NCBI GenBank assembly: GCA_937922805.1
Contig: CALAJV010000005.1
Location: forward strand, 567 to 64,566
Direction: 5' to 3'
Origin: an uncultured Acidimicrobiales bacterium
Lineage (GTDB): Bacteria; Actinomycetota; Acidimicrobiia; Acidimicrobiales; SZUA-35
Length of the DNA: 64,000 nucleotides
The first letter of the stretch is position 1; each line of letters begins with the position of its first letter. The position numbers and the translations under genes are program-made. Below the pieces are notes generated by a model that worked only from the letters and a program-made list of their open reading frames with translations, was not told the DNA's origin and ran no database searches. Positions 43,101-46,100 of the stretch are shown here, piece by piece.

Positions 43101-46100
43101 CGCGGATCTCGCGCCCGGTTTCGACAAGTTCGGCTATGTCGTTTGGAAGCGGCTGACTTGGCTCGTGCTGAGCTAACACTTCCAAATCTTCATGGTAGGC
43201 ATCGTGCCACATCCAGAACGCCTGGCTTAGCTCATCAAACTCTTCCGGCCAGTTGTCCCGAGGCCCATACACCCGACGCAGGATCTCGACAATTTCACTA
43301 ATCGCTTCGCCCGAGTGGTTAGATAACTCATCCGCCTCAGCCCACGGACTGATACTGAGATTTTCCGTCGGCGATTCGGTTCCATTCGTCGCTGAATTAG
43401 TAGCTAGGGGATCGTCGAGAACGGCCGCCGGACCTGATTGGCTTTGGTTTCCTGGTTGGTCCCGAAACACAACATTTCCCGGCGTCACGCCGAGTTCGGC
43501 CAAGGCTGCTTTTACCCTGTCTTCGAGAGCTCGCTCGTTTCCGAAACCAGGGTTAGGAAGTTCTAAGTCGGAGCCACTCCGAAAACCGGCTCTGAACATC
43601 TCGCTCGCCAGATCAGCGAAACCGATAGCGTCCAGTGGCTGGCCCAAGCGGTTGAGAAGAGAGCCATTGCTATCTACAGCACCACCAACTACGAATCGAC
43701 CTGGTTCAAGATCAACCGGGCGAGCAGTAAGGTTTACCCCACCACGATACACAGTTGCTCCCGGTGGCATGTGGCTCAGCGGATCCAGCTCTCGACCTAG
43801 CGGGCCAATCGTTGCCACTACTTCACCAGTCGACGCTTCGCTCGACTCAAGAGGTTCTTGGGCGCCCCCCGCGTTGGTGTCATTTCGATCGCTGAGCTGT
43901 TGGGCTTCGACCAACAAGTCCCGGCCGCTGTCGAGCAGATCATCAGCTCGTTGCCCTATAACGGCTACTTGATCGAGCTCTGTCAACGAGTCGATATCGA
44001 CGACAAAAGTCTTGGCAGTTGCCACGAATTGGTTGATTTTTGTGATCAAAGCTGGATCACCAGCAAGGTCTTTCTGGCCTACCAAGGTAGCGAGTTCCTG
44101 TGCAACGAGGTCGAGTTTGGACGCCGACGATCGTAGATGAGATAGATCATTTACCGCTGCGGTGTTCTCCGGCGTATCATCGAACTCGCCGCGGTAGAAC
44201 AAAACCCGAACCGATAGTGCCTCTTCAAAGGATCGGGAACTAGGTAGTGGTGAGACGTTGCGAATGTCGCCGTAGCCGTAGTCGAGTGCCATTTGGCCAG
44301 TAAACGTTGACGCTGCGGCCTGTTCCGGAGTTAGCCCCGCCCTGATCCCCGCTTTGAACGTTTCGAGGTTTGTCGGAAGTGTTGATCCCCAGAGGCCCCG
44401 AATCGCGGTAACATCGCCGGCCCATTCCATTAACCGAGCGAACAGCTCAGTACCGGTAAACCGGCCGTTGGCTCGCATCCCGATGGTAAGAATGCCGGCA
44501 TCGATCTTGCCCGTCACGTATGAGCCCTGTCCATCGTTGATTTCTAAGCTAGTTGCGGTGTTCTCCTTCATGAAATCATCGATATTGCAAGGTGCGTTGT
44601 GCACTAACACGTCGCGAGTTCCGGTATGAACGGTGAAGGTGTCCGGCCCGGAAGTGTCCAACTCCCAAACCAAAGTCGGCGCCGGGTTGGACATGGCAAC
44701 GCTGGCAACTTTAGCCACCCCAGCTGGCGTTAGCAGATAGTCGCCGGGAAGAACGTCTTCAAGCTCAACCCACGAACCATCAGAAGCAACCCAGAACAAG
44801 TGATGATCGGTAGCACTAACTTGTGAACCGTCCGTTAGGCCAACAGTGCCCATGACCCCATCGTCAACGTGAGACCACTGAGCGAGAACAACCTCGTCGG
44901 CAAACAGTCCGGTTGTTGGATCGCCGGCTAGCACTCGGTCACCGGCAGCAACATGTTCGATCGGTCGCAATGATCCGTCCGCCATACGCACAAGCGTTCC
45001 CGTTGGGAAGCTGTTGCAATCGGGCTCCCCAGTTGTCGCTCCGTCGGTGTCACCCGAATCAGCGCGATCAGCGGCCGTACGCCTTCGATAGTTAACCTCT
45101 TGGAGTAATCCTTCACCCGCGCTAAGGAGCTGTTCGCCTTCACTCTCTAGAACGTCAATGTCGACGCTTTCCGGGTCGTCGATGTCGAGAACGCTGTATC
45201 TGTAGGTCCAAACTTCGAGCTGGAACTGATCAACCCGTTTGGCCAGGTTAACGCTTGGCGTATCGTCGGTAAGTATAAGTTGCCGGACTATCTCGGCATC
45301 TAAGTCGGTCAGCTGGCCTGCGTATTGACGGAGCCGGGCAATCTCAGCCGACGCCGGTAGGTCGGCCTGACTCTCTCGAAGTCGAGGGGTAAAGGGTGCT
45401 TCGGCAGGGGTGCGATCAAAGGCTAGTTCTGCTCGGCGATACGCGCCCGGTTCCCCTTCTACATCGACAATGTGAACCTCAGTGAATCCGTTGCGAGCCG
45501 ATAGTTTGCCAGTAAAGGTAGCGGCCGCCGCTTCTTCGTGAGTTTTACCCTGACGAAGCTCGGCATTGAACGTATCGAGATTGGCTGGCATTCTCATTGT
45601 CCACGTTGCCCGCACCCCGTTCACTGGGGCCAATGCAGTCAGCGCTTCTTCGAAGTATTCGGTACCTGATCTTTCTACGGCTTCAATGGTGAGGTGTACA
45701 TACCCATTCCGGTCCTTCCACCCTGAGGCGCCGGCTCCATCTTCATTATCAGCTTCGTACCTGACCCCGTCTGACTCATTGGTACCGGCCTCAGAGTTGT
45801 CGCTATTCTCGCTGCCTCCGGAATCAGTCCGGTCTACTTGGTAACCGTCGGGCCAGAAATACACGTCGACGCCGGTGTAGGATCCACGGGCCCCCTCAAG
45901 TGACTCAAGGTCAACCTCGGCTCTACCGAAGCCAGCCCGAGCGGCCCATTTTCCAGTCGGGGTGCTCAACGCTGCTTCGTTAAGGTCGGACCCGGCCAAG
46001 ACGGACGAGTTGAAAACCTCGGTGTTGGTTGAGGTCAAACCCCAAACCCCTTTGATTCCGTTGATCGGCCCAGAAGAAGATCTAAGACCCGCCAACATCG

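Follow-up and report, generated by a model that had tools for sequence, protein, structure and literature searches.

We analyzed a 64,000-nucleotide window (the whole stretch of DNA under study) from contig CALAJV010000005.1 of an uncultured Acidimicrobiales bacterium (assembly GCA_937922805.1). Its minus strand carries an open reading frame (ORF) for a giant protein, and our subject is a Hint domain, of the family also containing inteins, that sits deep within this protein between two copies of a repeated module. From the N-terminus, the giant consists of a hydrophobic signal/anchor, CBM10-like and Cys-rich repeats, FN3-like repeats, a conserved core, six modules of one family (family-1, with the Hint domain between copies 5 and 6) and six modules of a second family (family-2). 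The features on which the argument rests are the following, with amino acid (aa) positions counted along the giant:

40129-55953, minus strand: giant ORF, 5,274 aa, 15.8 kb.
45019-48888, minus strand: family-1 copies 1-5, aa 2356-3645, each a ~125-aa alpha/beta core with, in most, a helical linker (self-BLAST and profile).
44596-45018, minus strand: Hint segment, aa 3646-3786, reading CNSFPTGTLVRMADG...TRDVLVHN and followed by APC.
45016-45018, minus strand: Cys3646, position -2, upstream member of a Cys pair that brackets the Hint domain.
44596-45012, minus strand: the PT-HINT / A-type bacterial intein-like (BIL) domain proper, Ser3648-Asn3786, 139 aa (Pfam, PDB matches and an alignment of 19 Hints).
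45010-45012, minus strand: Ser3648, the predicted position-1 nucleophile, aligned with residue 1 of a BIL domain and of the VMA intein.
44800-44811, minus strand: block B, T3715-D-H-H3718 (TxxH), which would assist the N-terminal acyl shift.
44596-44601, minus strand: His3785-Asn3786, the pair for Asn cyclization and C-terminal cleavage.
44587-44595, minus strand: Ala3787-Pro-Cys3789, positions +1 to +3, without a +1 nucleophile; Cys3789 is the downstream bracket Cys.
43834-44595, minus strand: family-1 copy 6, aa 3787-4040, with which the predicted released fragment would begin.
40132-43833, minus strand: six family-2 modules, aa 4041-5274, with ~115-aa alpha/beta cores, most of them separated by helical linkers.

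The segment at aa 3646-3786 matches Pfam PT-HINT (PF07591) with 42.9 bits (E 7e-11) against a gathering cut-off of 27.7 bits, and the match covers profile positions 1-136 of 137. A search of PDB sequences with the same segment returned chain A of 8W20 (E 4e-23; 1,368 residues, which we take to be UmbC1) and, over the full domain, the BIL domain 2LWY (E 6.4e-9). The Hint fold proposed for this segment by the initial annotation is thus borne out, and its coordinates, its VLVHN end and the APC that follows were all recovered on re-reading the sequence. The domain is a genuine PT-HINT / A-type BIL-like domain and no chance motif. Its closest relatives are the Hints of proteins from Acidimicrobiales metagenome-assembled genomes, to which it is 50-64% identical with no insertions or decay, and its similarities place it in a clade of Hints from actinobacterial polymorphic toxins (UmbC1 included), in which a C-terminal toxin follows the Hint. 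Scores for the other Pfam models of the superfamily, Hint, Hom_end_hint and Intein_splicing, remained sub-threshold (Intein_splicing 18.5 vs 35.8; Hint PF01079 26.9 vs 29.7). A profile built from the relatives found exactly one Hint, with no second copy or remnant in the giant or elsewhere in the window, and the exact DNA of its two junctions had no match in JGI metagenome contigs. Self-BLAST and profile comparison confirmed its location: the core of family-1 copy 5 (3395-3515) and its linker lie on the N-terminal side, the core of copy 6 (3800-3923) on the C-terminal side.

Both database matches come from systems in which such domains have been described. 8W20 is one of two structures of the Umb1 umbrella toxin particle of Streptomyces coelicolor, in which the HINT and toxin domains of UmbC1 are located at the tip of the stalk (PMC11062931). 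A-type BIL domains, as described, occupy variable parts of bacterial proteins that are not themselves conserved; they have a conserved His-Asn, lack a +1 nucleophile and undergo autocleavage at either terminus (PMC7765530). The Hint domain of the giant fits this description, since His-Asn is present, the +1 residue is Ala, the host is an orphan giant and 2LWY is matched. The type of domain and its presumed role are already well known (PMC3239186, PMC4725963), and it is the architecture around it that is new.

Next, we consider the active site. Ser3648 lies in a conserved (N/H/D)SF motif, and three alignments assign it to position 1. Against 2LWY, N-S-F of the query aligns on K-A-F, the Ala of which we take to be the mutated Cys1 of that construct, and TDHH of block B aligns on TFDH. 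The X10SSS variant of the VMA intein aligns its ...gSFAKGTNVLMADGS on NSFPTGTLVRMADGS, and the corresponding stretch of UmbC1 is AHSFPAGT. Conservation agrees with this assignment: the SF..GT start is conserved across the 19 aligned Hints, all 14 full-length sequences among them (comprising all full-length Acidimicrobiales relatives) have Ser at position 1, and this position is either Ser (65) or Cys (7) in the 72 parsed actinobacterial loci retrieved with the UmbC1 HINT. Block B is also preserved, with an exact T-D-H-H in 15 of the 18 aligned relatives and retention of its Thr and final His in 17, while the VHN end is invariant in all relatives examined. The catalytic set predicted by these alignments is complete (Ser3648, T3715/H3718 and H3785-N3786), and only the trans-esterification nucleophile at +1 is absent.

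This assignment changes one element of the initial annotation, which had taken Cys3646 as residue 1; by the alignments and the conservation described above, Cys3646 falls at position -2. The distance from the upstream Cys to SF..GT varies from -2 to -10 among the relatives, which is incompatible with a fixed active-site position, so the upstream Cys is not expected to be catalytic. With Ser3648 at position 1, the N-terminal step would be expected to pass through an oxy-ester at Asn3647-Ser3648 instead of a Cys thioester. At the other end, two earlier statements hold: the His-Asn required for Asn cyclization is in place, and Ala at +1 makes cleavage the expected outcome and classical splicing unlikely.

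To place the giant among similar proteins, we compared it with 81 relatives, namely nine loci (L001-L009) and 72 UmbC1-type loci (set within L012-L091). Four of the nine illustrate the range of architectures:

L001, 3,271 aa: FN3, a GH16-like domain, PT-HINT and a WHH nuclease.
L004, 2,910 aa: a tip that differs from that of L001.
L008: RTX repeats, PT-HINT and an AHH nuclease.
L009: SpvB/RHS, PT-HINT and a C-terminal domain.

In the few relatives scanned, Pfam calls the tail a nuclease toxin, and precomputed Pfam matches on two proteins (P0001 and P0006) agree with a polymorphic-toxin architecture. L001 and L004 share aa ~841-1812 and ~2140-2333 of the giant by BLAST and then run straight into their Hint. 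Compared with these two proteins, the giant has two additions, the five family-1 modules at aa 2356-3645 and a 1,488-aa tail that replaces a tip of ~200 aa. The giant thus has the large exported N-terminal region, shared with relatives bearing different C-terminal domains, that is typical of polymorphic toxins. The usual placement of PT-HINT directly before a small C-terminal toxin is not found, as 1,488 aa follow. Tails after the HN measure 77-224 aa in the nine loci and 88-164 aa (median 123) in the 72 UmbC1-type loci, so that the tail of the giant is ~7-19 times longer than those of the 81 relatives. A BLAST extension past the Hint suggested that the C-terminal domain of L004 might be a homologue of family-1; this extension is a weak artefact, family-1 motifs not being shared, and the candidate was rejected.

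The additions of the giant consist almost entirely of the two module families, the cores of which are positioned as follows:

Family-1 cores: aa 2365-2490, 2724-2845, 2982-3107, 3242-3369, 3395-3515 and 3800-3923.
Family-2 cores: aa 4049-4166, 4304-4416, 4501-4617, 4632-4747, 4903-5018 and 5159-5274.

Neither family has a match in Pfam, NCBIfam or PDB sequences, PDB profile searches included. An AlphaFold2 (AF2) model of family-1 reached a predicted local distance difference test (pLDDT) score of 89, and nearly all of its top Foldseek matches were GNAT acetyltransferases; these matches are weak, with a best E of 3e-3 and TM-scores of 0.34-0.47 among the GNAT matches. The family-2 model (pLDDT 91) had no structural match in PDB or BFVD by Foldseek. 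The whole 1,488-aa tail had no homologue in a search of 5.8 billion clusters. Each family has a single outside homologue. The one for family-1 (P0009; L010:1-720) has its core at the C-terminus of an ORF truncated by the contig edge, the core being followed by a 69-aa ORF and IS66 genes. That for family-2 (P0013; L092:142-1080) was obtained with a profile run against 1.84 billion representatives and has its core at the C-terminus of a small ORF; other matches of this profile were low-complexity sequences or the giant itself. P0013 has a His and a Cys (in GVHA and ACECG) at positions that hold other residues in the copies of the window. Both homologues occupy the slot usually taken by a toxin, a hint that the modules descend from C-terminal cargo domains. 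We found no conserved polar or obvious catalytic residue across the copies in either family, which argues against six active enzymes. Instead of acting as enzymes, the released modules may serve as binding or structural cargo.

The giant is recovered in full in two independent assemblies, the 64.8-kb NCBI/ENA contig (identical to the window) and a Logan contig, and it is therefore not an assembly chimera. GC content is near 56%, and both GC and GC at third codon positions (GC3) are uniform along the gene, revealing no compositional sign of a recent insertion. The Logan version (P0010) differs by three substitutions, S3802N, D4843G and V5044D (n=3, too few for an evolutionary-rate test). All three fall within the post-Hint tail.

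A further property of the region is the placement of its cysteines. Only six Cys are present in aa 2305-5274 and these form three pairs, each at a junction:

48868-48879, minus strand: C2359-D-D-C2362, a Hint-less pair where the core meets family-1 copy 1.
46234-46251, minus strand: C3235-DPAG-C3240, a Hint-less pair at the start of family-1 copy 4.
45016-45018 and 44587-44589, minus strand: C3646/C3789, a pair split by the Hint domain, at the start of copy 6.

Three such pairs arose in none of 200,000 random placements (0/200,000). Deletion of N3647-N3786 in silico yields C-AP-C, and the C2359-DD-C2362 pair lies at the site where L001 has C-[N-Hint]-AK-C and L004 has C-[N-Hint]-ESR-C. The bracket extends to the relatives, as a Cys occurs within 10 residues upstream of the Hint in 78/81 and within 10 aa on both sides in 68/81, against a background of 7.2% per 10-aa window. 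The two termini of a Hint fold are adjacent, which makes a C3646-C3789 disulfide geometrically plausible in an exported protein, and the arrangement suggests a putative disulfide tether across the cleavage site. A limited search of parts of the PT-HINT and BIL literature found no mention of a conserved Cys bracket.

Taken together, these results lead us to propose that Ser3648-Asn3786 is a PT-HINT (A-type BIL) autoprocessing domain within a giant exported protein resembling polymorphic toxins, a reading to which we assign a probability of roughly 0.62. By analogy with Hint and BIL chemistry, the domain, once exported, would cut its own flanks on one side or on both. The N-terminal bond would be cleaved by an N-to-O acyl shift at Asn3647-Ser3648 and hydrolysis of the resulting ester, and the C-terminal one by cyclization of Asn3786, which would free Ala3787-Asp5274 (1,488 aa). 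Cleavage of the N-terminal bond alone would instead free Ser3648-Asp5274 (1,627 aa). In either case, the N-terminal 3,647 residues, with the binding and anchoring parts and five family-1 modules, would stay behind. More speculatively, a Cys3646-Cys3789 disulfide would join the fragments until reduction, as in AB toxins.

The initial annotation had also described the liberated fragment as 1,488 aa long and made of family-1 copy 6 and all six family-2 modules. Length (5274 - 3786) and content both stand; its further statement that domains of this kind are known to release toxins holds in part only, the literature being partly predictive. HINT was predicted as an autoproteolytic device for toxin release (PMC3239186). 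According to secondary accounts (PMC4725963 and PMC7765530, which cite Amitai 2003 and Dassa 2004), a small number of BIL domains have been shown to autocleave in vitro.

Several observations weigh against autoprocessing for toxin release. The tail comprises 1,488 aa as opposed to 77-224 aa in every relative examined, and only one of the six family-1 modules follows the Hint; the five that precede it would go unreleased, a poor fit to simple toxin release. No recognizable toxin domain was found in the tail by Pfam, NCBIfam or homologue searches. In addition, no co-directional small ORF of the immunity type follows the giant (38504-40129); the only sizeable ORFs in that interval, 38660-39127 and 39230-40081, are both on the opposite strand.

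A more elaborate proposal combines the Hint domain with the Cys pairs and the modules. Here, the actinobacterial PT-HINT clade would be built into a disulfide-forming Cys pair, with one Cys on each extein side, so that self-cleavage would give a tethered two-chain toxin that lets go of its cargo on reduction. In the giant, the device would gate a 1,488-aa cargo of seven modules from two orphan families, one weakly GNAT-like and the other without a match among solved structures. The Hint-less C-x2-C and C-x4-C pairs would then be footprints of the same junction, and the array would have been built by cassette recombination at Hint junctions. We regard this combined proposal as tentative and rather doubtful as a whole.

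The best surviving alternative to autoprocessing is that the Hint is a non-cleaving relic of a junction, carried in when it was joined to an existing array as part of a cassette that also held family-1 copy 6 and the family-2 modules. PT-HINT sequences would, on this account, serve as conserved handles at which toxin cassettes recombine. The atypical position of the domain, with family-1 modules on both sides, is consistent with such an origin, and so are the Hint-less Cys pairs at copies 1 and 4, which resemble the same junction; because one of them sits exactly at the Hint position of L001 and L004, junctions appear to have been remodelled in this lineage. What speaks against a relic is that all catalytic residues are intact in a domain still 50-64% identical to its relatives, without insertions or decay, and that the uniform GC3 along the gene gives no sign of recent foreign acquisition. 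We consider it unlikely that the domain is merely a relic.

Somewhat less likely again is splicing of the BIL type without a +1 nucleophile. The amine of Ala3787 would attack the ester at Ser3648, giving a protein of ~5,135 aa with the junction C-N-A-P-C. To judge by the title of Dassa 2004 as cited in PMC7765530, both splicing and cleavage have been reported for A-type BIL domains that lack a +1 nucleophile. The Hint-less C-DD-C and C-DPAG-C sequences resemble the predicted spliced junction, and the two exteins would be kept together by a disulfide between their flanks. On the other hand, the review itself states that A-type BIL domains cleave at the C-terminus but cannot ligate their flanks (PMC7765530), and the accepted role in a toxin context is release. 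The +1 residue is mostly non-nucleophilic in the Acidimicrobiales relatives, and unrelated toxin domains follow it, a pattern that fits cleavage. Of the 72 Streptomyces-type loci, 48 have Cys, Ser or Thr at +1, and some of these 'pretoxin' Hints might for this reason splice.

Residue 1 might still be Cys3646, as first annotated, with a thioester as the intermediate. Cys is the commonest nucleophile of inteins and the upstream Cys is nearly universal among the 81 relatives, but its variable spacing, the three independent alignments to Ser3648 and the consistent Ser or Cys at position 1 of parsed relatives make this assignment improbable. Least probable of all is that the segment is a classical mobile mini-intein (as the weak sub-threshold matches to Intein_splicing and Hom_end_hint might suggest) or that processing is carried out instead by the trypsin-like protease encoded 184 nt upstream, which is co-directional and has intact H/D/S motifs, since the former lacks a +1 Cys/Ser/Thr, an endonuclease and a conserved host site and has only toxin pretoxin Hints as nearest relatives, and the latter is linked by adjacency only.

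With autoprocessing retained as the preferred reading, we compared the giant with known systems. The likeness to PT-HINT proteins and UmbC1 is the closest: a mini-Hint of ~140 aa with an (N/H)-S-F-P-x-G-T start, a TxHH block B and a VLVHN end, a bracketing Cys pair and a large exported protein as host. The difference is one of context, as 77-224 aa follow the Hint in UmbC1 and the other relatives, whereas in the giant five related modules precede it and 1,488 aa of orphan repeats follow. The A-type BIL domain 2LWY, of Clostridium thermocellum, has in common with the giant a terminal His-Asn, the absence of a +1 nucleophile, a hypervariable secreted host protein and an expected autocleavage at both termini (PMC7765530); the giant differs in having Ser rather than Cys at position 1 and in the embedding of the domain within an array.

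Identification of the giant as an UmbC was rejected, as the Hint alone is shared and there is no similarity in ALF ring or stalk. Its aa 1301-2350 had no match to 8W20 in a PDB phmmer search. In BLAST against 80 UmbC-type ORFs the Hint alone matched, and a profile of 23 UmbC N-terminal regions gave E = 1. The partners of UmbC are UmbB and UmbA, the latter with a catalytically dead trypsin-like domain together with a lectin. A trypsin-like ORF does lie directly upstream of the giant; its motifs are intact and it has no lectin domain.

Inteins and the Hog domain of Hedgehog share the Hint fold, residue 1 and the TxxH of block B, and inteins share the terminal HN as well. A classical intein was rejected on the basis of Ala at +1, a size of 139-141 aa, the lack of an endonuclease, orphan flanks and the sub-threshold Intein_splicing score. 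A Hedgehog Hog domain was likewise rejected, with no sterol-recognition region and a PF01079 score below its cut-off. MARTX toxins are giant exported polypeptides with several cargo modules and a built-in cysteine protease domain (CPD). Related 'polytoxins' (Zhang, Iyer, Aravind) are mentioned in PMC3239186. By analogy, the giant would resemble both in being one giant exported chain with several cargo modules and a putative internal self-cleaving domain; it differs in having a Hint in place of a CPD, a single cut site and repeated paralogous cargo without a recognized toxin fold.

The remaining parts of the giant, upstream of the modules, are the following:

~53500-55800, minus strand: N-terminal region, aa 60-811, with CBM10-type Cys motifs SDPDGDG(W/F)GWENG in three clear copies and a more diverged fourth.
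aa 445-500, 621-677 and 744-811, minus strand: three ~65-aa Cys-rich repeats, with FN3-like repeats next.
48955-53433, minus strand: the region common to L001 and L004 by BLAST, aa ~841-2333, with FN3-like repeats, Gly-rich hydrophobic repeats and a transmembrane (TM)-like helix.
~51100-51500, minus strand: Gly-rich hydrophobic stretch …GPGVAGALGLKGATAAVVGGAIGGTAS…, aa ~1515-1580, in ~45-aa repeats.
~48970-49040, minus strand: TM-like helix, aa 2304-2330, just before family-1 copy 1.

The Pfam match to CBM_10 in the N-terminal region scored 35.7 bits against a cut-off of 23. The binding modules are fused to the toxin-like giant itself. The Gly-rich stretch and the TM-like helix, both within the core shared with L001 and L004, may constitute a membrane-insertion or translocation region.

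Around the giant, the window contains the following genes:

56137-56856, minus strand: trypsin-like serine protease, 239 aa, with TAAHV / DLAL / GDSGAG intact, co-directional with the giant.
39230-40081, plus strand: 283-aa ORF converging on the giant at its 3' end, with an internal duplication (…NRYWSDEDQQWQETY… / …RRQYWNPDEASWQDTF…) and no Pfam match.
36288-38504, minus strand: GH5 cellulase-like protein with a duplicated N-terminal domain, probably secreted.
33514-35316, minus strand: Pro-rich extensin-like protein with a beta-glucan synthesis-associated (SKN1/KRE6) match, probably secreted.

The trypsin-like protease could be a processing partner. The orientation of the 283-aa ORF is not that usual for immunity genes. 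An actinobacterial DUF2510 gene is also among the neighbors; with the GC content and the closest Hint relatives, it points to an Acidimicrobiales bacterium as the most likely source. This gene neighborhood is also present in sequencing run ERR9287631.

PT-HINT domains are assumed to free the small tips of polymorphic and umbrella toxins, a release step that has hardly been studied. The locus offers a natural extreme case, in which the cargo behind an intact Hint has ~10 times the usual size and consists of domains that are almost without relatives. The active-site assignment also corrects the residue to mutate, as S3648 would be informative and C3646A would probe something else, and the Cys bracket offers a testable way to uncouple cleavage from release through a redox-gated tether. 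If the modules of the tail are effectors, they would represent two new families of cargo; otherwise, the giant would be an instance of PT-HINT used outside the context of a toxin tip.

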